From an uncultured Nitrososphaerota archaeon (GTDB lineage: Archaea > Thermoproteota > Nitrososphaeria > Conexivisphaerales > DTJL01): a stretch of DNA of 64,000 bases. Position 1 is the stretch's first letter, and every line of letters begins with the position of its first letter. Shown here one piece after another: positions 849 to 49,166 of the stretch. The stretch covers positions 64,001 through 128,000 of the forward strand of contig CAWJIE010000005.1 of NCBI GenBank assembly GCA_963842885.1, read 5' to 3'. A model generated the notes under the pieces. It saw only the letters and a list, made by a program, of their open reading frames with translations. It ran no database searches and was not told the DNA's origin. The translations under genes and the position numbers were made by a program.

Positions 849-852
849 GCTC

Positions 853-2236: not shown

Positions 2237-2289
2237 TTCGTCGCTAGCTGGATTCTGGTTTTCTTTAAACTTACCCCTAGAGGTGGCCT

Positions 2290-2381: not shown

Positions 2382-2459
2382 CCCTCCCCCTCGAATCTCG
2401 GCCCATCTCGTCCAAAAGGATAAATAACGACCATAGTTGACGATGGTCGAGAATTAGCT

Positions 2460-5379: not shown

Positions 5380-5479
5380 CCGAAATCCGAAGCCTCTTGC
5401 TCCGCGGCGCTATTTATCCATGACTCGCCCGAGGCCTTCGGGCTAGCCTTTTTAACCCGTCCGTCGAGATAGGACAATC

Positions 5480-6775
5480 GTGGCAGCCCTTCGCTACAGG
5501 TCAAAGTACCTCCTCCCGTCCGCCGGCGAGGGCCTTGTGGAGGGAGGCTGCGTAGTCGTGGACGGCGGGAAGCTTTCGTACGCGGGCCCCTTTGGAGCAT
5601 CGGGCGATTCCGGTCCTTTCGAGGACACGATCGACCTGGGCGATGCGGTAATGATTCCCGGGTTCGTCAACACCCATTGCCACTCCGCGATGAGCATCCT
5701 CAGGGGGGTGGGGAACGGCCTCTCCCTCGATGACTGGCTCCGGAAGAAGGTCTGGCCTCTGGAGGATCACATCCGCGAAGAGGAGATGGTTTCAGGCAAC
5801 CTGCTCTCCATGATCGAGTACGCCAGGAGCGGAATCACCTCCTTCATCGACTTCTACAACGTGAGGCCACTGCTGAAGGCGCTCTCCAAGATTAGGATGA
5901 GGTGCACCCTCTCCCTCGCGTTCATGGACCTCGTGCCGGCCATGAAGGAGGAGAGCTGGAAGCGCCTCGGCCAGGTCGACCGATATCGCCGAGAAGTGGA
6001 GGACGGAAAGGGCATGCGCTCTCTGGCGTTGGCCGTCCACTCCTCCTACGCTTGCTCCGAGGAGATGCTGAGGGGCGTGGCGGACGCCGCCTCGACCAAC
6101 GGCCTGATGGTGACAGGGCACCTCCTGGAGGCGCCCACGGAGGCAGGGCTGGTGAAGGCGAGCTGTGGCGTCTCTCCCGTGACTCTGTTGGAGAGGACGG
6201 GCATCATCGGTCCCAGGTTCCTCGCCGCCCACTGCGTCCATCTTGACCGGCGGGGCATAGGCCGCCTGGCCAAGGCGAAGTCGTCGGTGGCCCACTGCCC
6301 CAGGTCGAACTCACGCCTTGGGGTGGGGGTAGCCCCAGTCAAGGAGATGATGGAGAGCGGGCTCAACGTAGCCCTGGGGACGGACGGCGTGGGAAGCGCT
6401 GACTCGGTGGACTTCTTCGAGGAGATGAGGACGGCGGCATACCTCCAGCGGTCGTTGAACGCCGACGCCACCCTTCTCCAGCCTAGGGAGCTCCTGGCCA
6501 TGGCCACCGGCAACGGCGCCAAGGCCCTCGGCAACTCGGGCATCGGCCGCTTGGAGAGTGGACGGATGGCTGACTTCACCGCGGTGAGGCTGGATCGGGC
6601 GCACCTTAACCCCATGCTGGACCTGGTGGGCAACTTGGTCTTCTGCGCCCGGCCAGAGGACGTGTGTCTGACCGTGTCAGGCGGGAATGTCATTCAGGCC
6701 GAAGGGGAGGTGCCGGGCGTGGACGCCTCTTCGATCGTGCGGAAGGTTAGGGAGATTTCGAGCGGGCTCGGCTAG
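5480..6775 (+). CDS. mtaD: amidohydrolase, 5-methylthioadenosine/S-adenosylhomocysteine deaminase-like
   Basis: PGFVNTHCH, H..E, AHCVH, HCP.SN, LGTDG; lies between mtnP and ahcY. Confidence 0.8.
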   Translation: MAALRYRSKYLLPSAGEGLVEGGCVVVDGGKLSYAGPFGASGDSGPFEDTIDLGDAVMIPGFVNTHCHSAMSILRGVGNGLSLDDWLRKKVWPLEDHIREEEMVSGNLLSMIEYARSGITSFIDFYNVRPLLKALSKIRMRCTLSLAFMDLVPAMKEESWKRLGQVDRYRREVEDGKGMRSLALAVHSSYACSEEMLRGVADAASTNGLMVTGHLLEAPTEAGLVKASCGVSPVTLLERTGIIGPRFLAAHCVHLDRRGIGRLAKAKSSVAHCPRSNSRLGVGVAPVKEMMESGLNVALGTDGVGSADSVDFFEEMRTAAYLQRSLNADATLLQPRELLAMATGNGAKALGNSGIGRLESGRMADFTAVRLDRAHLNPMLDLVGNLVFCARPEDVCLTVSGGNVIQAEGEVPGVDASSIVRKVREISSGLG

Positions 6776-6784
6776 CCTGCCTCC

Positions 6785-8018
6785 TCAGCGGTCCAGGTAC
6801 TCCTTCTGAGCCCTGCTGAGGCTGTCGATTGAGACGCCTTCGTCCTTCAGCTTCAGTCGCGCCACTTCGAGGTCGGCGTCGGCGGGGACCGCCAGCACCT
6901 TACTCGGGAGGCGCCCCCTGCTCTTGACCAGATGTAGGACGGACAGCAGCTGAAGCGAGAAGCTCATGTCCATTATCTCGATGGGATGGCCGTCGGCTGC
7001 GGCTATGTTCACCAGGCGCCCTTCGGCCAGAAGGAGGAGCCTCTTTCCGCCCTTCAGGGTGAACTGGGTCACGTTGGGCCTGACCTCATCCTGCCTCAGG
7101 GCGACCTCCTTGAGCGCCTTGACGTTGACCTCGACGTCGAAGTGACCGGCGTTGGCCAGGATTACGCCGTCCTTCATGCAGGCCGAAGTGCCTCTTGCCA
7201 ACGATGTCGTCGCCGCCGGTGCAGCTCACGATTACATCGGCGACGCGCGCCGCCTCCTTCATGGGCATGACATCGTACCCTTCAAAGTGGGCCTCCAGCG
7301 CCCGGAAGGGGTCAACTTCGCACACCGCGACCCGGGCCCCCATCCCTCGCAGCCTCTCGGCGACCCCTCTGCCCACCCAGCCGAAGCCTGCTACGACGCA
7401 ACGGCGGCCTGCCAGGATCATGTTGGTGGACCTCATCAGGCCGTCCACTACGCTCTGGCCGCTGCCGAACCTGTTGTCGAAGAGGTGCTTGCTGTAGGCG
7501 TCGTTGACCGCTATCACCGGGAACTTGAGGGCCTTGTCCCTTTGGAGGTTCTTGAACCGCCTGACACCCGTCGTCGTCTCCTCTGTCACGCCGATGATGC
7601 CCTTGGCCATCCCTCTCTCCATGGCCATGACCGAAAGGTCGGCTCCGTCGTCAACGAGCACCGTGGGCTTCGAATCGAGGACCAGCCCCAGGTTGCGAGA
7701 GTACTCCTCCGCCGTCTCGCCTCTCCAGGCGAAGACATGGCTGACCTTCCTCGTAAGAGCCGCGGCGACGTCATCCTGCGTCGTCAGCGGATTGGAACCG
7801 GTCACGGAGACCTCGGCGCCCAGCTCCTGCATGATGGCACAGAGCACCGCCGTCTTCGCCTCTAGGTGAAGGCAGGCGCCCACCCGAATCCCCTTGAGCG
7901 GCTTCTCTTTCGCAAACCTCGATTCCAAGGCGTTGATGACGGGCATCCTTGCCCTGGCCCACTCCATCTTCTTGGCCCCGGCGGGAGCCAGAGAGACGTC
8001 CTTGACCGAATGCTTCAT
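6785..8018 (-). CDS. ahcY: adenosylhomocysteinase (frameshift near 7190)
   Basis: CLHLEAKTA, SNPLTTQD, EETTTG, KHLFDNRFG, GFGWVGRG, then NAGHFDVE and EGRLVN..AADGHP.EIMDMSF in a second frame. Confidence 0.95.
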
Positions 8019-8106
8019 GACATGGTGATATCTGGTTCAACCTTCAAAAGCGTTTCTTCAACACTGCGCTTATCTAGACGGGCGCTGCAATTAGAGTGAT
8101 ATTCCC

Positions 8107-8199
8107 ATGTCGGAGGATGACCTCTCCAAGGCTCAGCTGAGAAAGAAGAAGGCCAGGCGGAGGACCCGGGGCCCCTACAGGAAGTCGGCCGTCGCCTAG
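8107..8199 (+). CDS. 30-aa basic microprotein MSEDDLSKAQLRKKKARRRTRGPYRKSAVA
   Basis: ATG..TAG ORF with host-like GC3 codon use that fills the intergenic gap; below the ORF-track cutoff. Confidence 0.6.
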   Translation: MSEDDLSKAQLRKKKARRRTRGPYRKSAVA

Positions 8200-8201
8200 C
8201 G

Positions 8202-8528
8202 CTAGAACTTGACGTAGACGTCGTCGCCGCGGACTGACGTTTCATATGAGGGAGCCTGCTCGATGGAGGAGGGGTCGCCATCGTCCGGGCCCAAGAGCAC
8301 CTTTCCGCTCCTCACGTCGAACTCTGCACCGTGCTCGGGACACGTCAGAAGGTACTCTTTCAGGGTGCCCGCGGAGAGGTCTCCCTGCGCATGGGTGCAC
8401 CAGTTGTAGATGGCGTAGAAATTGCCTTCTACGTTGATGAGGACGATCTCCTTTCCATTTACGTTGAAGTACTTCTTCCCGCCCATCGGGACTTCCGCCG
8501 TTGAGCACACCTTCTCATATCCGGCCAA
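8202..8528 (-). CDS. Rieske-type [2Fe-2S] ferredoxin
   Basis: CTH...CPEHG motifs and FDVRSG; likely TTG start at 8528. Confidence 0.9.
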   Translation of the reverse strand: MAGYEKVCSTAEVPMGGKKYFNVNGKEIVLINVEGNFYAIYNWCTHAQGDLSAGTLKEYLLTCPEHGAEFDVRSGKVLLGPDDGDPSSIEQAPSYETSVRGDDVYVKF

Positions 8529-8638
8529 GCGATTTCGCCTTCGAAGGAACGGACTGGGACCGCTTATACGCATTACCGCTGTCGCCCCCAGCAAATTGGG
8601 GTCCACCTTTATACCGGAAGGCGTCTCGTGATTTGACC

Positions 8639-8935
8639 ATGGAAAGATGGAAGCTCGAATGCCCCAAGTGTGGCGAGAAGGCGATGGTGGAGCTCGGCTC
8701 CTATTCGAGTGACCAGTCCTACAGCGACCTGAACGAAGACTTCGCCCTGTTCAGGGTCTTCACTTGCCCCGTGCACAGGGGATGGGTCCACCGGAACATC
8801 AGCGATAGGGCGTTCGACGGTTCCTGCGGCATGGACGGAGGGAAGTTGCAGGACTTCGATATGAGGTCCGGGAGATGCCCGAGATGTGGCGCTGCGATTT
8901 TAAGCACGAAACTCGAGGACCAGCAGGTGGAGTGA
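8639..8935 (+). CDS. small zinc-ribbon/CxxC protein
   Basis: CPKC, CPVH, CPRC motifs; TTTATA upstream; abuts aconitase. Confidence 0.7.
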   Translation: MERWKLECPKCGEKAMVELGSYSSDQSYSDLNEDFALFRVFTCPVHRGWVHRNISDRAFDGSCGMDGGKLQDFDMRSGRCPRCGAAILSTKLEDQQVE

Positions 8936-10870
8936 ATGGGAAAACCTCTCGCCCGCAAGATAATCGAAAGCCATCTGGCTGACGGCAGGCCAGAGGCCGG
9001 CAGCGAGATTGGGATCAAGGTGGACAGGGCGTTGATGCAGGACGCCACAGGCACCATGGCCTGCCTCCAGTTCGAGGCGCTGGACATACCGAGGGTTCGA
9101 AACGAGCTTTCCATCATCTACGTAGACCACAACACATTGCAGGTGGGCTACGAGAACCCGGACGACCACAAGTTCCTCGAGACCTTCGGGGCGAAGTACG
9201 GCATCTACTTCTCCAAGCCCGGCAACGGCATCTGCCACCAGGTGAACCTGGAGCGGTTCTCGGTGCCAGGGAAGACGCTCCTGGGCTCCGACAGTCACAC
9301 CCCAACATCCGGAGGCGCCGGGATGCTGGCCATCGGCGTAGGCGGCCTGGATGTCGCCGTCGCCATGGGCGGGGCCCCCTTCTACTTCAAGATGCCAAAG
9401 GTCGTCGGCGTCAAGCTGACGGGGAGCCTGAAGCCCTGGGTCTCCACCAAGGACGTCATACTTGAGATGCTGCGTCGCCTCACTGTAAAGGGCGGGCTCG
9501 GAAGGATCTTCGAGTACTACGGGCCCGGGGTGTCCACGATCCCCGTGCCCGCAAGGTCAACCGTCACGAACATGGGAGCGGAGCTGGGAGCCACCACCTC
9601 CATCTTCCCGTCGGACGAGGTGACGCTGGATTACTTCAGGCGTCAAGGGAGGGAGGGAGACTGGGTTCCAATGCTGCCCGACCAGGACGCCGTCTACGAC
9701 GAGAACATCGAGATAGACCTCGGCTCCTTGGAGCCCATGATCGCGTGCCCAGGGGCCCCCGACAACGTCAAGAAGGTTTCAGAGGTGGAGGGCACGAAGG
9801 CGCAGCAGGTGCTCATCGGCTCGTGCACCAACTCCAGCTTCCAAGACCTCATGGTCGTCGCCGCCGCTTTGAAAGGCAGGAAGGTCGACCCCCACGTGAC
9901 CATGGCCGTCAACCCCGGCTCCCGCCAGGTCCTCACCACGGTCGAGGAGCACGGAGGGCTCTCCAGCATAGTGCTCTCCGGCGCCCGACTTCTCGAGAAC
10001 GCCTGCAACGGCTGCATCGGCATGGGCTCTGCGCCGGGCACCGACTGGGTGACCGTCCGGTCGTTCAACAGGAACTGGCCCGGAAGGAGCGGAACGGTCG
10101 ACGACAAGGTCTATCTCACCAGCCCCGAGGTCTGCGTCGCGACGGCGCTCTACGGCGAGATCACGGACCCGAGGAAGCTGGGCGAGTACCCACGCATCGA
10201 ATGGCCCGAGCACTTCGTGATCGATGACTCCATGGTCCTCCCGCCGGCGCCACCGAACTCCGAGGTCTCGGTCATCAGGGGCCCCAACATCAAGCCGCTC
10301 CCCCGAAGGGGACCACTCGAGCATTCACTTCAGGGAGAGGTGCTCATCAAGGTGGGCGACAACATCAGCACCGACGCCATCATGCCTGCCGGCGCCAAGA
10401 TCCTCCCCCTCCGCAGCAACATCCCCGCCATAAGCGAATACGTGTTCGCTTGGATCGACCCGGGCTTCGTCAAGAGGGCGCAGGAGAAGCACGGCGGCTT
10501 CATCGTAGGCGGTGGCAATTACGGTCAGGGCTCCAGCCGGGAGCACGCCGCGCTCGCGCCCATGTATCTCGGCGTCAAGGCGGTCATCGCTAAGTCGTTC
10601 GCGAGGATTCACAGGGCGAACCTGATCAACTTCGGCATCCTCCCGCTCGATTTCGTCGACCAGTCGGACTACGACAATCTGACCATGGGCTCAGTCCTGA
10701 GCATCGAGGGAGTCCCGGAGGCGCTGGCTCGCGGCGACAGGGTCCTGAGCGTCGTGCACCCCGGAGGTCGCTTCGACGTCAAGGCCGACTTCACATCCAG
10801 GGACAGGGAGATCCTCGTCGACGGGGGCCTGCTCAACTACACCAAGGGGAAGTTCTCCGCCGCTCAGTGA
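8936..10870 (+). CDS. acnA: aconitate hydratase
   Basis: QDATGTMA, DHN, GNGICHQV, DSHT, IGSCTN, CNGCIG, NYGQGSSREHA motifs. Confidence 0.93.
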   Translation: MGKPLARKIIESHLADGRPEAGSEIGIKVDRALMQDATGTMACLQFEALDIPRVRNELSIIYVDHNTLQVGYENPDDHKFLETFGAKYGIYFSKPGNGICHQVNLERFSVPGKTLLGSDSHTPTSGGAGMLAIGVGGLDVAVAMGGAPFYFKMPKVVGVKLTGSLKPWVSTKDVILEMLRRLTVKGGLGRIFEYYGPGVSTIPVPARSTVTNMGAELGATTSIFPSDEVTLDYFRRQGREGDWVPMLPDQDAVYDENIEIDLGSLEPMIACPGAPDNVKKVSEVEGTKAQQVLIGSCTNSSFQDLMVVAAALKGRKVDPHVTMAVNPGSRQVLTTVEEHGGLSSIVLSGARLLENACNGCIGMGSAPGTDWVTVRSFNRNWPGRSGTVDDKVYLTSPEVCVATALYGEITDPRKLGEYPRIEWPEHFVIDDSMVLPPAPPNSEVSVIRGPNIKPLPRRGPLEHSLQGEVLIKVGDNISTDAIMPAGAKILPLRSNIPAISEYVFAWIDPGFVKRAQEKHGGFIVGGGNYGQGSSREHAALAPMYLGVKAVIAKSFARIHRANLINFGILPLDFVDQSDYDNLTMGSVLSIEGVPEALARGDRVLSVVHPGGRFDVKADFTSRDREILVDGGLLNYTKGKFSAAQ

Positions 10871-11017
10871 GGACCCGTGTGGCGATGACCTGTGAAGCCT
10901 TGAATCTCCCAGGGGTCTCCTTCTTCGTACAGAAGCTGTGGCGAACGCAGCCTTGCAATCGCGGCTCGCCTAGAAACCTTTCGTGAGGCAAGAGCGCTTT
11001 AATACGGGGCGGCCTCC

Positions 11018-12137
11018 ATGGCGGCAGGGTTTAGCTTGAAAGCCGTCGTCCTTGGCGCCGGCAGCATAGGGGGCGTCATAGCGAGAGACTTCGCTTGGGG
11101 GATGCCGTCGTGGGAGGTAGTGTCCGCCGACCTCGACATCGCCAGGGCCAAGTGGGTCGTGTCACGGTACCGAGGCGAGAACCTCTCCCCCGCTCGGTTG
11201 GATGTCGGGCGCAGAGAGGAGTTGGCTTCCTTCGTACGAGGCTTCGACTTGGTCATAGGCGCCCTGCCCGGAAGCGAAGGTTTCGCCGCGGCTCGGGCGT
11301 GCGTCGATGCCGGAAGGGACTTGGTCGACGTCTCCTTCTCCCCTGAGGATCCCTTCCTCCTCAAGGAGGAAGCCGCCAGGAAGGGCGTTATGATAGTCCC
11401 AGACTGCGGCGTGGCGCCCGGGCTGAGCAACATCCTCGTGGGTCACGCCGTCTCCCAGCTCGACGTCGTCGAGAGCGTCCATGTCATGGTGGGGGGACTC
11501 CCCGTCAAGCCCGTCCCGCCGCTGGGCTACGTCATCACATGGTCCGTGGAGGGGCTCATCGACGAGTACACCAGGAAGGCGCGCATCATCGAAGACGGCG
11601 TGAACAAAGAGGTGGACGCCCTGACGGGGGTCGAGAGGATCGACTTCCCCGGTGTCGGCCCGCTCGACGCCTTCTACACCGACGGCGCGAGGACGCTGTT
11701 CCGGACGGTGGGGCCGGTGAAGAGCATGTGGGAGAAGACCCTCCGCTATCCCGGGCATGTGGACGCCGTGAAGATGATGAGAGACATAGGTCTGTTCGAC
11801 TCGGCGCCGCTTGACCTGGAGGGTGTCAACGTCGCCCCTCGCCAGGTCGCCGCCAGGCTTCTCGAAAGCCTTCTCAGGGTGCCCGGAGCCGAAGATCTCG
11901 TCGCCATGAAGGTTATTGTGGAGGGCGTCAAGTCTGGGAAAGGAGTGCGGCTTGCCTATTCGCTTCTTGACTACTACGACAGGAGCACGGGCACGACCGC
12001 GATGGCCAGGACGACGGCCTATACCGCCTCCGTGGTCGCCCAATTGGTGGCGGGCGGGTTCATCACAGGAGAAGGGTCTGGTGACCCCCGAAGAGCTCGG
12101 GCATGAAACCGAGGGTATTCGACCGCCTCCTTCTTGA
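11018..12137 (+). CDS. saccharopine/lysine dehydrogenase family oxidoreductase (frameshift near 12075; end uncertain)
   Basis: GAGSIG Rossmann motif, DCGVAPGLSN, TLRYPGH, TAMARTTAY. Confidence 0.85.
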
Positions 12138-12263
12138 CCTGAAGGCCACGGCTAACAATCGACTGAAACATCGTGACCCGCCAGCCGGCCGTCGGCTCGG
12201 CGTCTGAGCAGGGCTCGACTCCGCAGACTGGTCCGTGGGGAGGTCGATAGAAGAGGGCTCGCG

Positions 12264-12503
12264 ATGCATCTTGTGGCCTACATCAAGTGCCGTGAATGTG
12301 GAGAATACGTTTCGGTGAGACCGCAGCTCTACAACCCGCACGTCGACAACGACGTCAACACCCTGCTCTTCAGGAGTTTTCATCGCCATTGTATCGACAG
12401 GCGTCATCTCCTGGGCGAGGGGGACTCCTCATATCTCATCGAGTTCGCTGACTACAGGCTGGAAGCCCTGCCGCCTGAGGCGACGATGCTTGACAGAGAC
12501 TGA
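12264..12503 (+). CDS. small hypothetical protein with CxxC and His cluster
   Basis: 79-aa ORF with KCRECG and FHRHC; host-like codons. Confidence 0.55.
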   Translation: MHLVAYIKCRECGEYVSVRPQLYNPHVDNDVNTLLFRSFHRHCIDRRHLLGEGDSSYLIEFADYRLEALPPEATMLDRD

Positions 12504-12996
12504 TGCGATCAAGTCGTCGTCGTTCCTTGGGAGGTCGCTTTGCCGGTTGGGGCCTCCAGGCGGACCGCCTCGGCTGAATGCGTAGGCTCCGATCAGGAGG
12601 AGGCCCGCGACGGCGGCCACGTAGAGTCCCGAATCGAAACTGATATCCATGACTGCGGATGGGCTGAGGAACAGGGCCAGCCATATGCCCACGGTCGATC
12701 ATCACAAGGCACCCTGCAATCAAGGAGAGCCAGCGTCGCCACCAGGAGATGATTGACAGGACCATCCCTGAGAGGTAGGTTACGACGGAGAGCAGGCTCC
12801 CGGTGAACAACAGGTAGCTCGTTACGTTCACCGGGGCGTGCGCGAAAGGGAGATTGGCCAGGAGCACCATCCAATAGAGAGGGGAGTTCTCGTAGGTGGC
12901 ACCGCCTGACATGCCTGAGACCCAGTCGAAAACCAACGCTATCTCCATCAGGACGAACCCGAATACCACGAAGGTGTCGCTGAGCTCCTTATTCAA
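12429..12996 (-). CDS. hypothetical membrane protein (frameshift near 12700; end uncertain)
   Basis: Hydrophobic helices continue across two overlapping ORFs. Confidence 0.55.
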
Positions 12997-13166
12997 CGTC
13001 GCAAGATGGAAAGGTCGAAGTTATCAACGCTTGCACAGAAGTGGTCGACGAGCATGTACGTCGTGGCGGCTTCTGAGCATCTGTCAACGGGGACCCAGAA
13101 CCAGGCGAAGTCGAGGGGTTTATATTTTCGCAGAATGGTTGCAACAATCCTCCGAGAGACCATTTC

Positions 13167-35832: not shown

Positions 35833-37263
35833 TCACTTGGGACCGACGATGATGGGGGTAGGCTTCCTCCTCTTTAGGACGAAGAACGCCGCGCCCGCCA
35901 CGGCAACCACGGCGACGACGACAGCACCGCCTACCAAGGCAGTAGTCGAAGAGGAGGGAGGAGGCACGAAGGTCACCTGGACGGACTCGCTGCTGATACT
36001 GCCAGAGGTGGCGGAAACGCTCACGGTCGTGGACGAGGTGATCGACCCAGAGAGGGTCAGGGTGGATGTGGCCTGGCCGTTGGAGGCCGTCGTGACCGTT
36101 GATGGTGACAGGACGCCAGGGCCAGATGCCGTGAGGGTGATGTTGACGCCGGCCATGGGGGTGCCGTTCTGGTCAAGGGCCGTCACCGTTACGGTGGAGC
36201 CCGATGACGAAGAAGTGCGAGTCACAGTCGTAGGGCTGGCGGAGACCTTTAGAGAGGCAAGCGCCGGCGGAGGAGGCCCTGTCGATATGACAGACACGGT
36301 GCCCGAATAATAGTTGGCGACGTAGAGGCAGCCGTTGGCGGGGTCGTAGGCTATCCCATACGGCTCAACGCCCACGGTTATCGCGCCCCCCATTACCGCG
36401 TTCGTGGTCCCGTTGATGACCGACACGGTGCTTGAACCAAGGTTGATGACGTAGAGGTAACCGTTTGCGAGGTCGTAGGCTATGCCAATCGGCCCAGAGC
36501 CCACCGTTATGGGGCTCCCCACCACCGCGTTCGTGGTCCCGTTGATGACCGACACGGTGTTTGGACCGAAGTTGGCGACGTAGAGGTAACCGTTGGCGGG
36601 GTCGTAGGCTATAGCAGCCGGATAGGTGCTCACTGTTATGGCTCCCGCCACGGAGTTTGTGGCTCCATCGATGAATGACACGGTGCCTGAGCCCACGTTG
36701 GCGACATAGAGGTAGCCGTTGGAGGGGTCGAAGGCTATTCCAACCGGATAAGTGCCCACCGCTATGGTGTCCACACCCGTGTTCGTGGCCCCGTCGATGA
36801 CCGACGTTGTGTTTGAACCATAGTTGGTGACGTAGAGGTAGCCGTTGGCGGGGTCGTAGGCTATCCCAGCCGGCGCAACGCCCACCGTTATCGCGCCCCC
36901 CACTACCGCGTTCGTGGAGCCGTCGATGACCGAAGTTGTGTTCGAACCGAAGTTGGCGACATAGAGGTAGCCGTTGGAGGGGTCGAAGGCTATCCCAATC
37001 GGCTCAACACCCACCGTTATGGGGCTCCCCACCACCGCGTTCGTGGTCCCGTTGACGACAGACACGGTGCCTGAACCAAAGTTGGTGACGTAGAGGTAGC
37101 CGTTGGCGGGGTCGTAGGCTACATCATGCGGTTGAGTGCCAACAGTTATGGTGCCCACTAAGGCGCCCACTGCTCCCCCCGCCCATGCCGGACTTGAGAC
37201 AATAGAACAAGCGGCGATTACGAAAGCCGCAATGACGAGTGCCGCCATCACTTGCTGGTTCAT
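35833..37263 (-). CDS. YVTN/YncE beta-propeller surface protein with Ig-like domain and C-terminal TM anchor
   Basis: Seven ~43-aa repeats (IAYDPANGYLYV.N.GS.TVSVI), Ser/Thr-rich Ig-like region, TM followed by KRRK. Confidence 0.9.
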   Translation of the reverse strand: MNQQVMAALVIAAFVIAACSIVSSPAWAGGAVGALVGTITVGTQPHDVAYDPANGYLYVTNFGSGTVSVVNGTTNAVVGSPITVGVEPIGIAFDPSNGYLYVANFGSNTTSVIDGSTNAVVGGAITVGVAPAGIAYDPANGYLYVTNYGSNTTSVIDGATNTGVDTIAVGTYPVGIAFDPSNGYLYVANVGSGTVSFIDGATNSVAGAITVSTYPAAIAYDPANGYLYVANFGPNTVSVINGTTNAVVGSPITVGSGPIGIAYDLANGYLYVINLGSSTVSVINGTTNAVMGGAITVGVEPYGIAYDPANGCLYVANYYSGTVSVISTGPPPPALASLKVSASPTTVTRTSSSSGSTVTVTALDQNGTPMAGVNITLTASGPGVLSPSTVTTASNGQATSTLTLSGSITSSTTVSVSATSGSISSESVQVTFVPPPSSSTTALVGGAVVVAVVAVAGAAFFVLKRRKPTPIIVGPK

Positions 37264-41522: not shown

Positions 41523-43001
41523 TCAAAGCCCCCATTTGCCCCGGTTCAATACCCTATGAGGATCGAATATCCCCTTCATTTTCTTCAACACCTCGTAGCT
41601 CAGCGGGTTTTGCCCGAACACCACGTCGCCGGCTGATCCGTATGGCCTGCTGAAAAAGGCCTCCTTCTGAGCCAGTTTCATCACCGCTTCCTTCTCAAGC
41701 CTGCGCATTAGCTCGACCTCGCTTGGCGTCCCGGGATCGAAGGGGCACATGAGCTCCACGTGGCAGGCATGGTTCTGAATGACAGGTTGTATGTAAACTC
41801 CGACAGACTCCTTCTCAATGGCATTTTTGCCGGCCAGATCAATGAAGACATCTACGAGTCCGGGCGCCCTATCAAGGGTCGTCAGGAAGAACAGGGAAAG
41901 GCAATGTCCTTTCAAACGATGACGCCAGTCAGTTTCGCCGCACGGACGTGTCGCCATATCCAGCAGAACCCTAGCTTGGATATTTCCCTGAGATGTCGTC
42001 ATGCTGAGCCTGTTCCCATTGGCGATGGATTCTATGTCCTTGCGCTGATACTCGACCCTTGACTTGGGCATCCTTTCAAATCCCGCGACGTTCACCAGGC
42101 AGACATAACTGGGAAGTGAGCTCCTTATTGCTTCGAATTGCCCTCCGCCCTGCGCGCTCACGAGCATGGCCGCCGCGGTGCGATCGAGAACAAAGAAATG
42201 CTCCCCTAACCATTGCCTTTGGACGTCGTAGATGAACGGGATCAACGCCAGGAGCGAATCCGCACCGAGAAGGAAAGGATGCTCGAGGGACGGTTTGAGC
42301 TCCGTGCGCATCGTGATCCATGTCACTATGCCCATAGTGCCCTGGGAACCTTGGATGACGCGGTGAAAATCCGTCTGAGATGGGCCCTGAGAGGATTTCT
42401 GGGCACCTCCCACAGCACGCTGCTGCTCAAGCGTCCCGGGACCGCCTGCCGCGCCGGTGCGGAACATCTCTCCGTTCCCGAAAATGAACTCCGTGCTCCC
42501 TACTGGGTCACTGATGTCCCACTGTCTATTTGGCCATATGGTGGGCTCTCGGTCCATCACCGATGCAACGACGCTCTTGCCGATGCGAGGCGAGAGCGGC
42601 ATCGGAACGGTCATTCCATACGGCTCAAGGGCCTTCAGCAATTCTCCGTAGGTAACGCCGGGCTCGATCAGGCAGACACGGTTTCGCCTGTTAATCCAAG
42701 GGATCTGCCTCCATTGGGACAGGTCTATCAAGATGTTCTCTTCCTTTGCCGCAAACCCGCCCTTGCCATGGACGCCCGTGGAGGAGGACACCGTCAGATC
42801 CAGACCGATTTCATTGGCAAGCCGCAACAATCCCTGTAATTCGTCCACTTTGGAAGGGCGGAGTATATAGGAAGGCTTCACCGCCCAATCTATGATAGGA
42901 TTCGATTGTTGAAAAGTGCCGATGTCGTCGGGATCACTGCTGACGGTACCCTCATGCAGAACCGAGCGCAGGCGTTCTCCAAGTTCAGGACCCGAGATCA
43001 C
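41523..43001 (-). CDS. FAD-binding oxidoreductase (GlcD/VAO family), second subunit
   Basis: IEPGVTYG, G.QGTMGIVT, K..FDP.RVLN.G. Confidence 0.88.
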   Translation of the reverse strand: MISGPELGERLRSVLHEGTVSSDPDDIGTFQQSNPIIDWAVKPSYILRPSKVDELQGLLRLANEIGLDLTVSSSTGVHGKGGFAAKEENILIDLSQWRQIPWINRRNRVCLIEPGVTYGELLKALEPYGMTVPMPLSPRIGKSVVASVMDREPTIWPNRQWDISDPVGSTEFIFGNGEMFRTGAAGGPGTLEQQRAVGGAQKSSQGPSQTDFHRVIQGSQGTMGIVTWITMRTELKPSLEHPFLLGADSLLALIPFIYDVQRQWLGEHFFVLDRTAAAMLVSAQGGGQFEAIRSSLPSYVCLVNVAGFERMPKSRVEYQRKDIESIANGNRLSMTTSQGNIQARVLLDMATRPCGETDWRHRLKGHCLSLFFLTTLDRAPGLVDVFIDLAGKNAIEKESVGVYIQPVIQNHACHVELMCPFDPGTPSEVELMRRLEKEAVMKLAQKEAFFSRPYGSAGDVVFGQNPLSYEVLKKMKGIFDPHRVLNRGKWGL

Positions 43002-44305
43002 ATTCGCTCACCTCGGTCGATCTCTGCGGCCTCGTAAACAAGATCGACGATATCGACAACCGGAAGCAGTGGTTTCTCCAAGGATTGTTGGGACTCGGAC
43101 AGGTTCGCTCTGCAGTGATGACATGCTGTGACCAGACACTCAGCTCCCACATCCACCGCTTCTTCCAAACGGTCAAGAGCCGTTGAGCGCGCTAGATCCG
43201 GATATGCCAAGGGGACCCCGCCACCTCCTCCGCAACAATACGAGTATTCACGAATCCGATGCATCTCGATGAAATCGAGCCCTCTAATCGCACGTAGAAT
43301 CTGACGCGGTGGATCATAGACACCATTCACCCCTCGGTTGATCTCTTTGGGGGGTTCGGTGTAGGTCATGCAACCCCGGGTGACTTTTTGCTCCCCTTTC
43401 CATGTGAGGGGCGGTTCGCTCTGACGTCCAAGGTAACATGGATCGTGATAGGTCACCTTTCGCCTGATAGGATTGGGCAAGCGCAGACGGTTATCAGCTA
43501 TCAACTGCGCCAAGAACTCGGTAATATGCAGGACTTTGGCCTTGGGCGCCCTCGCATACTCAGGATACTTGGAACGGAAAGCTCCCAGGCACGACCCGGA
43601 CAGGACAACGACCGTCCCGATCTTCATATCGTCGAGCATATCCACCAGATGGTTTGCTGTGTTCGCAAAGACATCTCTGTGTCCTGTCCAGTAAGCTGGC
43701 AGCCCGCAGCTCGTTTCATTCTCTCGCAGGATGCCGAAATCCACCTCTGCTTGCTTCAGAAGGATGGCGCACTTTCGGGCTACTTCTGTGGCTCCTGGGT
43801 CGCATCGCATGCAACCCGTAAATAGGAGAATCGGCGCTTCTTGGTTCGGCAATATCTTCAATCCCAGGTCTTCTGCCCAACTCAGACCTTGATCCTCTGT
43901 CCTTCCCTCTGGATTTCCATATTCTTGAAGATTCTTTATCATGGACCGATGGGCAGGCAAAGCAAATCCTTCGTCCACAATGTGCTCTCTGAGCGCCATG
44001 TTCACTGCGTGGCGTTCCGCATCCATGATGAATTTGCAGGAAACATCACAGAGTCCGCATGCAGTGCAGGCGAACGTGATATCAGCAAGCGCTTGATCGA
44101 CCTGGATGCGGCCATTGACCAATGAGAGTGCCATGATGCTCTTGCCTGACCCTGAATATCCATGGAAATGGTACAGGTGGCTGGCTGGGCAACCATCAGC
44201 ATATTTCGGGTTCAGTACCGTTGGTAGTGGCACCATTTTGCACAAAGAGCATCTGATGCACTTCTGCATCTCCGGTTCCAGATCTTTGAGTCTAGACAAG
44301 GACAT
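42998..44305 (-). CDS. (Fe-S)-binding CCG-domain protein (GlcF/HdrD-like)
   Basis: CIRCSLC, CTACGLCDVSC, TYHDPCYLGR, CCGGGGG, TACHHC. Confidence 0.9.
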   Translation of the reverse strand: MSLSRLKDLEPEMQKCIRCSLCKMVPLPTVLNPKYADGCPASHLYHFHGYSGSGKSIMALSLVNGRIQVDQALADITFACTACGLCDVSCKFIMDAERHAVNMALREHIVDEGFALPAHRSMIKNLQEYGNPEGRTEDQGLSWAEDLGLKILPNQEAPILLFTGCMRCDPGATEVARKCAILLKQAEVDFGILRENETSCGLPAYWTGHRDVFANTANHLVDMLDDMKIGTVVVLSGSCLGAFRSKYPEYARAPKAKVLHITEFLAQLIADNRLRLPNPIRRKVTYHDPCYLGRQSEPPLTWKGEQKVTRGCMTYTEPPKEINRGVNGVYDPPRQILRAIRGLDFIEMHRIREYSYCCGGGGGVPLAYPDLARSTALDRLEEAVDVGAECLVTACHHCRANLSESQQSLEKPLLPVVDIVDLVYEAAEIDRGERM

Positions 44306-44595
44306 GCCGTTGCACGTTCCTCTGCTAATGAGCAACTGGCGCCTAAAAGGATATTGGACTCCGCCAGAACGATATTCTTTGGCCGCATTGTGATCGTTTT
44401 AAAGCCTTCCTAAGCCGCTTCACTCTATTCATCATTTGCACCGTTTTGCAAAATAGCGGAAATCTAGAAAGAGGAAAAAGTATGTTACATTTTTTCAATG
44501 CTTTCCGACACGGCGGTTATTGGGTGAGCGGTGGCGACCCGATTTCCCCCGGGGCAGTCAAGAGTCCTTCAGGCCGATCTGTTCTCGGGCGAGAC

Positions 44596-44872
44596 TTCAG
44601 GTGCAGATTGCCTGCGCCATCGGTGTGGCGGAGCCCATCTCCGTCTTCGTGACGACCTTCGGCACCGGGAGAATCCCCGACGATAAGATAATGGAGCTGG
44701 TCAAGAAGGACTTCGACCTGCGCCCCGGCATGATCATCAAGCGCTTGGACCTTCTGAGGCCCATCTACAGGAAGACGGCCTGCTCGGGCACTTCGGGAGG
44801 AACGAGCCCGAGTTCACCTGGGAGAGGACAGACGTGGCCGATCATCTGCGGCAGCTGGCTGGACTGAAGTAG
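44596..44872 (+). pseudogene. metK: C-terminal fragment of bacterial/eukaryote-type S-adenosylmethionine synthetase
   Basis: [37 protein letters not shown], then (frameshifted) GHFGR....FTWE.TD. Confidence 0.85.
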
Positions 44873-44933
44873 CACACGGATTCAGCGTAGCTCAGTTCAC
44901 TCCGGGCTGGCCATTAGCGCTGTCGGCGAGCCT

Positions 44934-45929
44934 TCAGAGGTAACCATTATCGCGGTACCATTCTAAGGTCTCGCTTAGTCCATCTCTCAGCCCGAAAGAT
45001 GGCCGATACCCCAGCTCCCTCGTCGCCTTCGCCGAGGAGAAGGCCCGGTCGCAAGTCACCGAGTCCACCGTGCCCGTGCGCCACATGAAGCTCTCCCTCC
45101 CCGCTACAGCGTTGAAGGCCTCGACGGGGGCCATCATCGCCTTCGCCAAGGCCTTGGGAAGGTGCCTGACGGGAGGCTTTCGTCCGCAGAGCTCGGCCAT
45201 TATGGAGTACAGGTCCGTGTACGTCCAAGCATGGTCATCGGTTATGATGTACGTCTGGCCATTGGCCGCCTCGGGGTTTTCTAGGGCTAGGGCGAAGGCG
45301 CTGACCACGTCTCGAACGTGGACGAACTGCACCAGGTTCCTCCCGCTGCCTACGATGAATTTCGTGGCCAAAGAGCCCTTGGCGAAGGATGTGATGAACC
45401 AGTAGGCGACGTCGTCGACGTTCTTGGGGCCGTATACGCCAGACGGACGGATGATGGTCCAGTCGATGCCGTCCGCCGTTGACTCCCTGACCGCCTTCTC
45501 CGCCGCCACCTTGGACCGTCCGTATTCGTAGGAGGGCCTCAGAGGCGTATCCTCGTCGGCCGGGGGCGATTCCACGGGGCCGATGGCCTCCGTGCTGCTG
45601 CAATAGATGAACCTCCTGACGCCGTTGGCGACGCAGGCCCGGAGGAGGGAACGCGTCCCTTCCACGTTCACCTCGTCGTAGAGCTCCCTTTTCCCGAAGA
45701 AGGTGTAGTAGGCGGCAAGGTGGATAACCGCCTCCATACCTTCGGTCGCCACAATGAGGCTCTTTGCATCCGTAAGGTCAGCGATCCTAATCTGCGCGCC
45801 GGCCACGCCATCCGTTGTCGCCTTGCGTGCCATACCGGTTACCTCATGCCCCCGGCGGACCAACTCTTCGACAATGTACCCTCCAATGAAGCCGGTCGCG
45901 CCCGTCACCAATACCTTCGTCGGGCTCAC
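44934..45929 (-). CDS. NAD-dependent epimerase/dehydratase
   Basis: VLVTGATGFIG, HLAA, YGRSK, RP..VYGP, FVHVRD. Confidence 0.92.
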   Translation of the reverse strand: MSPTKVLVTGATGFIGGYIVEELVRRGHEVTGMARKATTDGVAGAQIRIADLTDAKSLIVATEGMEAVIHLAAYYTFFGKRELYDEVNVEGTRSLLRACVANGVRRFIYCSSTEAIGPVESPPADEDTPLRPSYEYGRSKVAAEKAVRESTADGIDWTIIRPSGVYGPKNVDDVAYWFITSFAKGSLATKFIVGSGRNLVQFVHVRDVVSAFALALENPEAANGQTYIITDDHAWTYTDLYSIMAELCGRKPPVRHLPKALAKAMMAPVEAFNAVAGRESFMWRTGTVDSVTCDRAFSSAKATRELGYRPSFGLRDGLSETLEWYRDNGYL

Positions 45930-46255
45930 CCCAGGAGGACGCGGCCTTCTCGGCTGTGGACGGCGTAAGTAAGGGACAGAGCTAGGTTCACACCATCAAA
46001 CGGCTCGGCGGAGCTCCTCATGTACATGTCCTCGACCGGCGTGACCCGGTAGACGCCTGCTACCCCGCCTTCAAGCATTTCGTCGGGATCGAAGCTCGGC
46101 TGCACGATGCATTGATGCACAACTTGAGTATTAAGCGTGATGGACAGGAGGCCCATTCGCAGGTCCAAGCCGACGTCCCTGACCTCCAACGCTTCGGTAC
46201 CAAGACACGTAAGAACGAAGAGTATCAAAGATATGAAGGAAGGAGAGTTGGGAGG

Positions 46256-46345
46256 ATGTGGTACACGAAGACAAGACTGCTCATAGTCATAATCATAATA
46301 GTGGTGGTCACCGCGGCCATTGCCCTATTGAAAAGGTCCGTCTGA
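46256..46345 (+). CDS. 29-aa single-TM peptide MWYTKTRLLIVIIIIVVVTAAIALLKRSV
   Basis: Purine-rich GGAGG upstream; clean hydrophobic helix flanked by basic residues; lies between repeats 1 and 2. Confidence 0.5.
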   Translation: MWYTKTRLLIVIIIIVVVTAAIALLKRSV

Positions 46346-46522
46346 AGAGATAGCACCAGATTCAGACATCGATGCTTCGCAGGTCCAAGCCGAGGCGTCA
46401 CCCGTCAGCGGAGGAATCCCGTCGTTCTTGAACTCGACTGGCCCAATACCTCAATCGATATTAGGAAGGCTGACAACGATTCGGTCAGCAGGTAGATCTC
46501 CTTGGTTGACAGGCCAGCATCC

Positions 46523-47101
46523 ATGAAGTCTAGATACGGCTTGGGCGCGGCGGGAGCACTCTTGCTCTTGGCCGGGACCGTTAACGTCATCTTCAACATG
46601 GTCTCTGAAGGGACATATCCTGGTTACAACCTCGGCACCAACGCTCTGAGCGACATGGGCGCAATCGGCTCGCCAACGTTTCTCCTCTGGAATGGTCAGT
46701 TGCTGGTCACTGGGATCCTCTCATTCATAGGGGTCGTAATATTCCTGCGAAGCTCGGCTCTCCCAATTCCTAACATCAGAACTGCTTGGGTCTTGTATGT
46801 CTTGCCGCCGTTGGGATCAATCATCGTTTCTCTCTTTCCTGAGAATTCGGTTTTGGCCATTCACGCAGTAGGTGCCTTTATGGTCTTTATTTTTGGAGGT
46901 CTTGGGTCTATCTACGCATATAGGTTCACGAAGTCCCCGTTCAGGTATCTATCGGTACTCTTGGGAGCGGTGTCTCTGCTGGCCATATCCCTCTTCGGCA
47001 TTCCGTCGGTCGTCGGCTTTGGCGTCGCAGAGCGCCTGGTCGTGTACTCGTTCAACATCTGGACCATTTGTTTTGCAGGATACCTGATGTCAAGAGAATG
47101 A
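46523..47101 (+). CDS. DUF998 family membrane protein
   Basis: E..YPGY....NALSDMG, SLFPE, H..GA...F, G.AERL. Confidence 0.8.
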   Translation: MKSRYGLGAAGALLLLAGTVNVIFNMVSEGTYPGYNLGTNALSDMGAIGSPTFLLWNGQLLVTGILSFIGVVIFLRSSALPIPNIRTAWVLYVLPPLGSIIVSLFPENSVLAIHAVGAFMVFIFGGLGSIYAYRFTKSPFRYLSVLLGAVSLLAISLFGIPSVVGFGVAERLVVYSFNIWTICFAGYLMSRE

Positions 47102-47250
47102 ACAGCTCCACCAGAGGACGATAGGTCTGAATGCGAATTGGGCTACATCGAAATCTTGCCACGAAATCAGCCCATTTTTCGCAGGTCCAAGCCCACGCCT
47201 TGGGATACCTATTGAAATACTGGTCAGCCTTACAATACTGGGGCGAGTTC

Positions 47251-47670
47251 ATGAGTAGAGCCGGTGACTACAACGCGCAGAACATTGCGGAGTTCCGCAG
47301 GAATCACGGAAAAGTCGGAGGCTACTTCGAGGGAGCTCCGTTGCTGCTGCTCCACACCGTCGGGAGACGCAGCGGCAAACCTCGCACCAACCCGATGATG
47401 TACCTCAAAGACGGGGAGCGTTACGTGGTGTTCGCGTCCAAAGGTGGTGCGGATACCCATCCGGACTGGTACTACAACCTCATGGCCCACGCTGACGTCC
47501 AGATCGAGGTCGGCGACGAGACGATTGACGTGCATGCTGAAGAGATCACCGGCCTTGAACACGACAGAATCTACAGGCGCCAAGCCACCCTCTATCCCCA
47601 GTTCGCCGACTACCAACGCAAGACCAAGAGAATCATCCCAGTCGTCGCTCTCACCAAGAAGAAGAAATAG
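47251..47670 (+). CDS. deazaflavin (F420)-dependent nitroreductase family protein (Ddn-like)
   Basis: N...IAEFR.N.G, LLLHT.GRRSGKPR..P, ASKGG...HPDWY.NL, YQ.KT.R.IPVV. Confidence 0.92.
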   Translation: MSRAGDYNAQNIAEFRRNHGKVGGYFEGAPLLLLHTVGRRSGKPRTNPMMYLKDGERYVVFASKGGADTHPDWYYNLMAHADVQIEVGDETIDVHAEEITGLEHDRIYRRQATLYPQFADYQRKTKRIIPVVALTKKKK

Positions 47671-47699
47671 AGAGGAAGTTTGTTGAAGTCCCGCCTTGA

Positions 47700-47750
47700 T
47701 TCAATTAACTTATTGACTTCAATAACATAAAGATGATTAACCTATTGAGA
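47700..47750. promoter_or_regulatory. AT-rich inverted-repeat cluster next to the tRNA 3' end
   Basis: TTATTGA-CT-TCAATAA perfect inverted repeat; TTAAC(T/C)TATTGA occurs twice. Confidence 0.45.
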
Positions 47751-47817
47751 GTCCTCTGTTCGGGCCTAAGCGCTGCACGTCGACCTAATTCATACCTCCG
47801 GATACGAATAGTTCAAT

Positions 47818-47967
47818 TGGTAGCCCGGGAAGGATTCGAACCCTCGTCACCAGGGGTCTCCTCCCAACAGCGCCAAGGAGTCTTGTTCTAGCCCACGGCT
47901 GTCAGGATCCAGAGCCTGGTATCCTTGGCCGCTAGACTCGGCGGCGCACCTGCGCCTCGACCGGGCT
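47818..47967 (-). tRNA. tRNA-Gln(CUG) with two introns (10/11: 47937-47957; 37/38: 47856-47908) and encoded CCA
   Basis: Spliced sequence AGCCCGGTCGTCTAGCGGCCAAGGATACCAGGCTCTGGCCCTGGTGACGAGGGTTCGAATCCTTCCCGGGCTACCA folds as a cloverleaf; both junctions form 4-bp helix/3-nt bulge motifs. Confidence 0.93.
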
Positions 47968-48035
47968 TCAGGGCTACCGTATGAACAGGCTTTTTGTAGG
48001 TATAAGTCCTTTTCTGAACGGAAGGTCACCCAAGT

Positions 48036-49166
48036 CTACTGAGACAACTTCATGTATTCGGACACTGCCTTGCCGGTGTCGAACCCTGGAAGTTCAGCCG
48101 TGACCCCTTCGCCGAAGGCGGCCAAGGCGAGGAGGAGTTGGTCCTTTGTGACGTTCCCCATGTGACCCACTCGAATCATGTCGTCCTTGTGCGTGTCAAC
48201 CCCCCTTGCGACCAAGATGTTGTGCCTGGCGAGTATGGACTGGTGTATCTTCGCCGCGTCCTTGACTTTGATCGTCGTTACGGTGGGGCTGGGGTCCCTG
48301 GCCCAGAGCTGGACGCCGCCTTTGACGAGAGCCTCCCTGAAGGCGGAGGACAGGATTGTGTGCCTCTTCCAACGGCTTTCTAGCCCCTCCTCCTTGACCA
48401 TCTCCAATGCCACACGCAGTGCTCGCAGGATCGGCACGGTGGGGGTGGTGACATAGATTTGAGGGTCCTTCATCACCTCTAACCAGTTCTGCAGGTTGAA
48501 ATAGTACGATGGGATCGGTGTCTTCCTCTTCTGGACGAGGTCCACCGCCCGCGTGGACAGGGCCATCAGCATCGCGCCGGGTGGCGCGGCCAGGGCCTTC
48601 TGAGATCCGGCGAAGGCGACGTCCAAGTCCCAGTCGTCGAACCTGAGCTCGGCGCCTCCCAGACCGCAGACGGCGTCGACCAGGGACAGGGCCCCGTGGC
48701 GGCGCGCGACCGAAGCCAGGTCCTTTACGTTGTTGATCACGCCCATGCTCGTCTCGATGTGGGTGATCAGGACAGCCTTGTACGCGTCCTTCGAAAGCAT
48801 TTCGTCGAGGACCTTTGGGTCGGCAGCTTGGCCCTCGGGGGGACTGTAGACGGTGGTCTCCGCTCCGTATATCCTCGAGACGTTCGTGTAGCGCTTGCCA
48901 AAATAACCCAGCTCGATGGAAAGTACCCTGTCACCCTTCTCAAACAGGCTGGCTGCAGAAGATTCTATCCCGAAGGTCCCAGAGCCGGAGAATACGATGA
49001 CGTCCCCCTTGGCCTGAAAGACGTACCTCGTCAGGTCTAGGATCTGCAGGAATTCGTTCTCGAACTCCTTCGATGTGTGCCCCACCATGGGGAGGGACAT
49101 CGCCTGAAGGACGCGAGGATGGAGGTTCGTCGGGCCCGGAATCATGACAAGAGTGGGATCTGCCAT
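48036..49166 (-). CDS. class V PLP aminotransferase (alanine-glyoxylate/serine-pyruvate type)
   Basis: MIPGPT, GSGT, THIETS.GV, VDAV, GSQKAL.APPG, IRVGHMG. Confidence 0.92.
   Translation of the reverse strand: MADPTLVMIPGPTNLHPRVLQAMSLPMVGHTSKEFENEFLQILDLTRYVFQAKGDVIVFSGSGTFGIESSAASLFEKGDRVLSIELGYFGKRYTNVSRIYGAETTVYSPPEGQAADPKVLDEMLSKDAYKAVLITHIETSMGVINNVKDLASVARRHGALSLVDAVCGLGGAELRFDDWDLDVAFAGSQKALAAPPGAMLMALSTRAVDLVQKRKTPIPSYYFNLQNWLEVMKDPQIYVTTPTVPILRALRVALEMVKEEGLESRWKRHTILSSAFREALVKGGVQLWARDPSPTVTTIKVKDAAKIHQSILARHNILVARGVDTHKDDMIRVGHMGNVTKDQLLLALAAFGEGVTAELPGFDTGKAVSEYMKLSQ

Follow-up and report, generated by a model that had tools for sequence, protein, structure and literature searches.

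Co-oriented arrays of exchangeable gene units bounded by a short asymmetric repeat in one genus of Conexivisphaerales archaea

What does a short DNA word mark when it recurs, always in the same orientation, between unrelated genes? The question is raised by a stretch of 64,000 nucleotides from an uncultured Nitrososphaerota archaeon (positions 64001-128000 of contig CAWJIE010000005.1, here C5, of assembly GCA_963842885.1), which we call the window. A pattern search of the window found the 16-mer TTCGCAGGTCCAAGCC, hereafter M, exactly three times, at 46156, 46376 and 47178, all on the + strand, as a first-pass annotation of the bare sequence had stated. That annotation interpreted the region as a cassette array beside a tRNA attachment site, with a recombination site unlike attC and a recombinase acting in trans. 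A further window match with three mismatches lies at 24635 (-); 0.73 matches are expected by chance at up to three mismatches. We find that M is the invariant core of an asymmetric site; in arrays that are co-oriented and made of exchangeable cassettes, this site stands at the upstream border of every unit.

The source genome (G000; 2.03 Mb, 11 contigs, 87% complete) was compared with three other species of its genus (G001, G002 and G003) and with a fifth species without exact M (G004). All genomes compared are metagenome-assembled genomes (MAGs), hence the ends of arrays frequently coincide with the ends of contigs. Loci compared with G000 bear L-numbers and comprise M-rich contigs fetched from G002 and G003 together with metagenome contigs. 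A 20-mer scan of metagenome contigs gave 91 stretches, and 80 loci were analysed (378 kb in total). Metagenome contigs 96-100% identical to G000 served for strain-level comparison. A GTDB-wide scan of 185,579 species genomes gave at least 106 stretches, and its results are taken from the 80 listed among them. Open reading frames (ORFs) beyond the window were called with our own ad hoc codon-usage caller rather than a validated predictor, and the contents of units were read from the sequence, with Pfam run on a few proteins.

A genus-specific repeat with sharp edges

M is a real repeat, far beyond chance. In the source genome 41 copies are exact, and the number rises to 66 when two mismatches are tolerated, against one for a reversed-pattern control. 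Exact M occurs in four of the 36 available genomes of the order (41, 12, 39 and 22 copies), all from one genus of soil and peat archaea of Conexivisphaerales. When one mismatch is allowed, there are 58 copies in G000, 24, 60 and 44 in the three other species of the genus, one in G004, a single copy in one genome of another family, and none in the remaining 35 of the 41 genomes searched. Among the matches listed from the GTDB-wide scan, multiple copies with the extended consensus were found only in records titled Conexivisphaerales or Nitrososphaerota archaeon, and the bacterial matches listed were single copies. Viral contigs gave 21 matches, all single and lacking the extended consensus save for YAYG after the core in two. 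The 80 metagenome loci contain 200 copies with up to two mismatches. At the level of titles and abstract openings, we found no printed description of the repeat.

The alignment of 247 distinct copies delimits a conserved, asymmetric site of about 20-22 bp, consisting of the 16-mer followed by YACG(yC), with sharp edges from the first T of the 16-mer. Around half of the copies in G000, G002 and the metagenome loci have the motif (GT)CAGCCCA 0-4 nt upstream of the core, the two being separated by a T/C-rich spacer of variable length. This motif is rare in G001 (5 of 21 copies) and G003 (4 of 29). Some copies have decayed to one to three mismatches, and G001 holds a copy with three mismatches at an orthologous position. 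Rfam found nothing at M at the gathering score, nor at E ≤ 5 within 45900-48050. We rejected M as a coding sequence, given the 0-4 nt variation of the spacer before the core and the different reverse-strand frames of the copies.

Arrays keep their polarity whatever genes they hold

The first-pass annotation described one array tied to a tRNA. Instead, a genome has eight or more arrays, and the copies of M number about 25-60 in each of four species. The clusters of G000 lie at C2:15-49, C2:95-111, C3:0-26, C3:174-191, C4:335-341, C5:110-111 (the window), C5:162, C8:4-6 and C10:18-22 kb. Adjacent copies at most 6 kb apart have the same orientation in 42 of 44 pairs in G000, 63 of 65 in the loci of G002 and G003, and 119 of 119 in the metagenome loci (224/228 pooled), and this holds whatever strand the intervening genes use. 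The spacing has a median of 709-1058 bp and ranges from 151 to 5951 bp. The copies had been described as intergenic, which is largely correct: 62 of 66 in G000 lie outside ORFs called by the ad hoc caller, but in the window the first copy overlaps a 100-aa minus-strand ORF (its only overlap), which has no Pfam match.

The genes flanking M show all four combinations of orientation (21, 19, 15 and 9 cases), and the units between copies hold no ORF (5 units), one (20), two (10) or three to six (7). Hence, M is not the promoter, leader or terminator of particular genes. The expectation of one + strand gene per copy holds in the window, where a 29-aa ORF, a DUF998 gene and a Ddn-like gene are all on the + strand, but elsewhere units often have several genes, on either strand. 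The cargo includes ABC (ATP-binding cassette) transporters, helix-turn-helix membrane proteins, secreted repeat proteins, a transporter of the major facilitator superfamily type, a helicase, subunits of the xanthine-dehydrogenase type, and many proteins without a known family. Two roles considered for M were rejected: that of a promoter or 5' leader, as genes on either strand follow it (for copies preceded by the module A described below, six of 13 have the downstream gene on the same strand, five on the opposite one, and two were unassigned), and that of a mark of replication polarity, as it has no relation to GC skew.

M keeps its polarity for tens of kb at a stretch; at C2:103.9/104.6 kb it switches in a convergent manner. 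Such strictness, in a site that is short and asymmetric, would suit a directional binding site for a protein, whether its function is architectural or regulatory (a barrier to forks, the boundary of a domain or a punctuation mark of transcripts), that happens to be enriched in flexible islands. Yet M follows neither GC skew nor gene-strand bias, its neighbouring genes have no bias in orientation, its spacing varies nearly forty-fold and is confined to variable islands, and the breakpoints of homology between species fall at M. We therefore consider a binding site of this kind highly improbable.

Three other dispersed repeats accompany M. BLAST of G000 at E ≤ 1 gave 62 matches for M, 31 for the AT-rich module A, 18 for module B, which contains a hairpin with an 11-bp stem (by eye), and 39 for module C. 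The recurrent orders in G000 and G002 include A-M, B-M, C-M and M-C, all in the orientation of M. With up to two or three mismatches, the cores of A and C number 20 and 18 in G000, 15 and 13 in G002, and 3 and 1 in G003, and were not found in G001 or G004. Since M occurs in G001 without these two modules, and in G003 almost without them, it is the common, genus-wide element of the arrays; A and C are additions of particular lineages.

The head of the largest array (C2:1-13000) has few good ORFs, and the G+C content of the first 20 kb is 0.47, against 0.58 genome-wide. This part may be foreign DNA or a mis-join.

Units recur with other neighbours across species and strains

A comparison of G000 with the M-rich contigs of G002 and G003 shows homologous stretches distributed among different contigs of G000, and they frequently extend precisely from one M to another in both genomes. 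For example, C2:26692-28864 corresponds to L023:2221-4391, C8:5500-6108 to L024:6348-6950, and C8:4315-4848 to L022:302-824. In L022, a unit known from contig C2 of G000 is followed by one known from C8. Directly outside M the aligned species carry unrelated DNA, and what is shared at the M junctions amounts to only about 20-35 nt. Of 88 ends of alignments, 17 fall no more than 40 nt from M in G000 and 14 do so in both genomes; by our estimate such zones make up about 0.3% of G000. The units are thus modular, with breakpoints at M.

All three units of the window recur elsewhere, flanked by M and with other neighbours, so the exchangeable cassettes proposed from the sequence are corroborated. 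The first is found as a whole M-to-M unit in metagenome locus L252 (84% identity), after A and M and before a different unit; its 29-aa ORF is retained with conservative changes only. Homologues of the DUF998 gene of the second unit are flanked by M in L017, L243 and L192, with different neighbours on the left (L243, L017) or on the right (L192); the homologue in L017 is preceded by module B and a truncated M. The Ddn gene of the third unit lies between two copies of M in L024, L206 and L236, again with different neighbours. An invariant gene order in relatives, named in the first-pass annotation as an argument that would overturn it, is clearly not what we observe.

Close strains differ in the same regions. 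In L244, the DNA between M and a terminal variant of A is replaced (646 nt with a small gene in G000, about 100 nt in L244). Two adjacent units have exchanged places in L237, with junctions at an A module and at M. In L209, a sequence 100% identical to G000 continues from module A into M, where G000 runs into a variant of A and B. L260, from a 98%-identical strain, lacks 420 bp between two B-containing direct repeats of about 90 nt relative to C8:6168-6712 of G000, and with them a small gene of 88 aa that these repeats flank; the layout points clearly to a repeat-mediated deletion or insertion. Finally, an array abuts a tRNA-Arg in L210, and the same tRNA-Arg has no array in G000.

No excision joints were seen in public Logan contigs, data that say nothing for or against excision. 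One contig each from X1 and X2 spans 45000-47833 in the order of the window, the joints listed have sides of at most 26 nt, save two in X3 near 48012-48378 (outside the array), and those within the array represent further copies of M or A.

How the units might move

Two direct M sites would recombine so that the DNA between them is excised as a circle carrying one M, and such a circle would then insert at any chromosomal M. The reaction between the two sites would be site-specific, and the recombinase would be encoded elsewhere and act in trans. Recombination of this kind would explain the direct orientation of M, its indifference to the strand and number of genes, and the shuffled neighbourhoods between species and strains. 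We favour a site-specific enzyme because M is short and sharply delimited, is kept across species, and suffices without A and C. The circular intermediates, the crossover between M sites and the dedicated enzyme are what we infer, and the chances that cassettes move by such a putative enzyme seem to us about even. The first-pass interpretation is in this sense partly supported, its site-specific recombination belonging to the part that we infer.

A number of observations weigh against this reading. No recombinase is linked to M among the tyrosine recombinase (PF00589), serine recombinase, Y1 transposase and TnpB genes of G000, all of which lie outside the arrays. A tblastn search with four integrases and the transposase of an IS110-family element (see below) against the 378 kb of M-bearing metagenome DNA gave no match, and neither two integrase families nor the IS110 gene track M across species. 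M has neither a dyad (by eye) nor a shared hairpin, which is unusual for the core site of a tyrosine or serine recombinase. Rearrangements break at modules A and B too, hence repeats other than M also recombine. Several M-flanked units of relatives lie in G000 without a nearby M (e.g., L029, equivalent to C3:389.6-394.0 kb), and at the equivalent of L036:619-1357 (C5:416.3-417.0 kb) G000 has at most a decayed relic of M. By our tally over 14 orthologous positions, the conservation of M is only about double that of the adjoining DNA, which is mostly coding.

The host machinery could produce much of this pattern by homologous recombination between the dispersed repeats M, A, B and C, with insertions and deletions of the Campbell type generating co-oriented arrays. 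This remains a strong rival because no recombinase is linked to M and because breaks occur at A and B: the strain variants L260, L237 and L209 have breaks between two copies of A or two of B as well as at M. The decay of M copies to one to three mismatches would also suit it. On the other hand, the junctions at M have little DNA in common for such a process, with unrelated DNA on both sides, and the conservation of M is sharply edged. The 16-mer is unchanged across four species whose cassette DNA is 70-90% identical, and the arrays of G001 and G003 have M and almost no A or C. Homologous recombination also offers no account of the spread of M to the flanks of so many unrelated genes. On balance we regard it as a serious but rather unlikely explanation. 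Were it correct, M would still represent a new repeat system, specific to the genus, which gives genomic islands their structure and interrupts the assembly of MAGs.

Should M prove to be a true recombination site, it would represent a second, mechanistically different route to arrays of gene cassettes, in a barely studied archaeal order from peat and soil; being short and defined, it could serve in the search for a new recombinase. The organisation of the flexible genome of these archaea, which includes transporters, surface proteins and redox enzymes, would then be explained as well. We tentatively propose a still more specific scenario, in which more doubt remains than confidence: an archaeal cassette system independent of integrons, with an unstructured, asymmetric site of 20-22 bp and a recombinase of an unrecognised kind acting in trans, where cassettes of any content move between arrays. 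The enzyme could belong to a new protein family or be RNA-guided, and may be carried on an extrachromosomal element that was not binned.

Candidate recombinases

The absence of a recombinase in cis, as noted from the window alone, extends to the arrays of G000 and to the M-bearing metagenome DNA, where the recurrent ORF families look like cargo. The search for a recombinase linked to other copies of M, also advised in the first-pass annotation, yielded none that tracks M or lies in the arrays of G000. This genome has five matches to PF00589, none of them inside arrays. Its single serine recombinase, its single Y1 transposase and its six TnpB genes likewise lie away from arrays. The sole Y1_Tnp gene (C5:213342-213695) adjoins a TnpB gene (C5:212311) in the layout of IS200/IS605 elements, with no M near.

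The family of zinc-ribbon integrases is sporadic across genomes of the taxonomic family. Two isolated fragments occur in G000, a C-terminal one at C3:20563-20871 and an N-terminal one at C9:16774-17214; we presume that they could be split halves left by integration of the Sulfolobus spindle-shaped virus (SSV) type. A second family of tyrosine integrases is multi-copy in G002, always at contig ends: L281 (C132), L283 (C75), L282 (C105) and L284 (C90). In two of these copies the common DNA starts inside the 3' end of a tRNA (GTCGTGGGTTCGAATCCCACCGGGCCCGCCA), hence they are ordinary integrative elements that use tRNA attachment sites.

In G003, a 12.8-kb interval from M to M (L037, contig C35, positions 216-13015) contains a tyrosine integrase, a DUF3987 protein, zinc-ribbon proteins and an adenylate cyclase-TPR (tetratricopeptide repeat) protein. 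This interval may represent an integrated element inside an array. Its integrase is found in full only in G003.

An IS110-family element in a companion repeat

An IS110-family transposase (PF01548 DEDD_Tnp_IS110 and PF02371 Transposase_20) lies beside M three times in G000, at C3:189186-190640, C3:1400-2700 (frameshifted or truncated) and C7:19000-20300. The second and third of these copies interrupt module C, both halves of which are present, whereas the one at C3:189-191k has the left half only. M is intact beside all three and is not the interrupted repeat. The M repeat system is thus accompanied in this genome by an IS110-family element that targets a companion repeat. Since its gene was not found in G001 or G003, the IS110 transposase is not the enzyme that acts on M. 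The leader of the element, about 190 nt long, has stretches matching both module C and the element's own end. Such a leader would be compatible with a bridge RNA, judging from general knowledge of these elements and the available text of PMC11208160.

These associations make one ask whether M is simply the conserved end of a small non-autonomous mobile repeat, resembling miniature inverted-repeat transposable elements (MITEs), repetitive extragenic palindromic (REP) sequences or Neisseria intergenic mosaic elements (NIMEs), with the cassette pattern being secondary. The high copy number, the intergenic position of 62 of 66 copies and the mosaics of M with A, B and C in G000 and G002 would be in line with this, as would the use of module C as an insertion site, since relatives of IS110 insert at REP-type repeats. 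Mobility of M itself has less in its favour. Neither a terminal inverted repeat nor a hairpin nor a target duplication was found at M, adjacent copies are co-oriented in 224 of 228 pairs whichever strand the genes use, and the sole Y1 transposase has a TnpB gene as its neighbour, the arrangement of an ordinary IS200/IS605 element. No orthologous pair of filled and empty sites was found, although M-free G004 has too small a portion of the arrays to make the comparison fair (seven and three short matches to 18 and 20 kb). A mobile repeat is in our opinion an improbable source of the arrays.

Comparison with known systems

Arrays of small, unrelated, exchangeable and co-oriented units with a recurring site between them, whose content differs between close relatives and which mostly lack an adjoining recombinase, recall integrons and clusters of attC sites lacking integron-integrases (CALINs). 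The attC sites of integrons have RYYYAAC ... GTTRRRY ends and form imperfect single-strand hairpins of about 55-140 nt. M arrays have at least two co-oriented sites less than 4 kb apart, as in CALINs. Moreover, Ghaly et al. 2022 (PMC9668308) report that 75 MAGs of archaea, spread over nine phyla, carry integrons whose attC and IntI are canonical.

Still, M arrays are very unlikely, to the point of being hardly credible, to be true integrons or CALINs with attC sites and an integron integrase. M lacks the RYYYAAC/GTTRRRY ends, no GTTRRRY is found in M, and there is no conserved sequence 5' of the core over the 247 copies. The three window copies share no stable single-strand fold, their folds being no better than those of shuffled sequences or specific to one copy. 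The site is a conserved sequence without a fold, as opposed to attC, which is structured and variable in sequence. The four intact tyrosine recombinases of G000 score at most 29 bits against TIGR02249 (cut-off 265) and 20.8 against PRK15417 (cut-off 435), and the genome has no IntI. Lack of IntI alone does not exclude a CALIN, as CALINs lack it by definition. M arrays also put the conserved part at the start of the unit, are many per genome, and have units of zero to six genes on either strand, whereas integron cassettes are mostly single ORFs in one orientation. The statement that M is neither attC nor part of a CRISPR array is upheld: copies of M are spaced by 151-5951 bp with genes inside, and not by short uniform spacers.

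The pdif modules of Acinetobacter plasmids are discrete gene modules bounded by a short conserved site, as in M arrays, and XerC/XerD, encoded elsewhere, shuffles them among replicons. Their sites are 11-6-11 dyads in alternating orientation, unlike M, which is direct and without a dyad. M arrays function in the manner of integrons or pdif modules, yet lack what defines either.

Neisseria intergenic mosaic elements (dRS3/RS) and the REP sequences and bacterial interspersed mosaic elements (BIMEs) of enterobacteria are short, genus-specific intergenic repeats that form mosaics and serve as landing sites for elements of the IS110 (DEDD) type. M resembles them in being genus-specific, intergenic, mosaic with other modules and placed beside variable genes, often for surface proteins. 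Unlike them, it is not palindromic, does not fold into a hairpin, is strictly polar over long arrays and brackets whole genes, and the IS110 element lands here in module C rather than in M. REP sequences have a cognate Y1 transposase (RAYT, for REP-associated), and the one Y1_Tnp gene of G000 is the gene beside TnpB described above. High-copy extragenic mosaics of the REP type were found in G000 and G002 only, A and C being rare or not found in G001 and G003.

Tycheposon islands of Prochlorococcus are cargo units next to tRNAs, between direct repeats, and many lack an integrase of their own. M differs from such tRNA-targeting elements because it does not derive from a tRNA 3' end and because most arrays lie away from tRNAs; the tRNA integrases of this genus join at the tRNA 3' end, not at M.

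The array of the window and its tRNA

The first copy of M in the window (46151-46178, +) consists of GCCCA, the core (46156-46171) and GACGTCC. The first cassette (46172-46375, +) holds the 29-aa hydrophobic ORF (46256-46345), for which a Pfam search found no family. The second copy (46376-46391, +) is a bare core, without GCCCA upstream or YACG downstream. It precedes the cassette (46392-47177, +) with the DUF998 membrane protein (46523-47101, with an alternative TTG start at 46502; Pfam E 1.8e-13). The third copy (47167-47199, +) comprises TCAGCCCA, a T-tract, the core (47178-47193) and CACGCC. Copies 1 and 3 do share their flanks, as had been noticed, with GCCCA upstream and (G/C)ACG downstream. 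The third cassette (47194-47699, +) encodes the Ddn-like F420H2-dependent quinone reductase (47251-47670, Pfam E 8.7e-41).

The array ends with the terminal variant of module A (47700-47748, +), which the first-pass annotation had taken for a cluster of AT-rich inverted repeats. It is a dispersed module with a direct, not inverted, repeat of 13 bp (ATTAACTTATTGA at 47704-47716 and ATTAACCTATTGA at 47736-47748, identical at 12 of 13 bases). This variant also terminates further arrays, in G000 and in the strain variant L244.

Next to it lies a probable tRNA-Gln(CUG) with two inserts (47818-47967, -), one of 56 nt in the anticodon loop and another of some 23 nt separating the acceptor arm from the D arm. 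Neither ARAGORN nor Rfam at its gathering score detected this tRNA, but the Rfam tRNA model run at an E-value threshold matched 47829-47938(-) with 22.1 bits (E 0.16) and a 56-nt insert after CU-CUG. Because of this match, and because the 34 nt at its 3' end agree fully with those of another tRNA on the contig, a tRNA-Gln(UUG), the gene is likely, if not proven, to be a tRNA-Gln(CUG) with introns. The adjoining tRNA-Gln reported from the sequence is thus probably genuine, but a tie of the array to a tRNA attachment site is not borne out by the relatives. From the tRNA onward, the right flank is syntenic in G002, G003 and G004, the tRNA being conserved beside an aminotransferase gene. G002 and G004 have no array at this position, and G003 has an M 141 nt away that points away from the tRNA, opposite to G000. 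BLAST of the extended M against G000 matched only copies of M and none at the tRNA 3' end, and no other genomic match to that 3' end involves M. Most arrays do not adjoin a tRNA.

The left flank holds a gene for an NAD-dependent epimerase (44934-45929, -), and homology to relatives ends at about 45933-45975, ahead of the first M. A comparison of window positions 43000-46000 places the epimerase gene after a 5.6-kb block (C5:102.7-108.4 kb) in G000 and G001, and before this block in G003 and G004. Hence, the left flank of the window array has itself been rearranged.

The Ddn-like protein has relatives at 73-96% identity among the 120 matches listed, including two proteins from MAGs named Thaumarchaeota and Nitrososphaerales by NCBI. 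The cassette genes are therefore not obviously foreign. Further upstream in the window, a tandem repeat at 36287-37121 (129 nt, 6.5 copies, 78% matches) resembles repeats in the arrays of relatives and on contig C7, and looks like a gene for a repeat protein.

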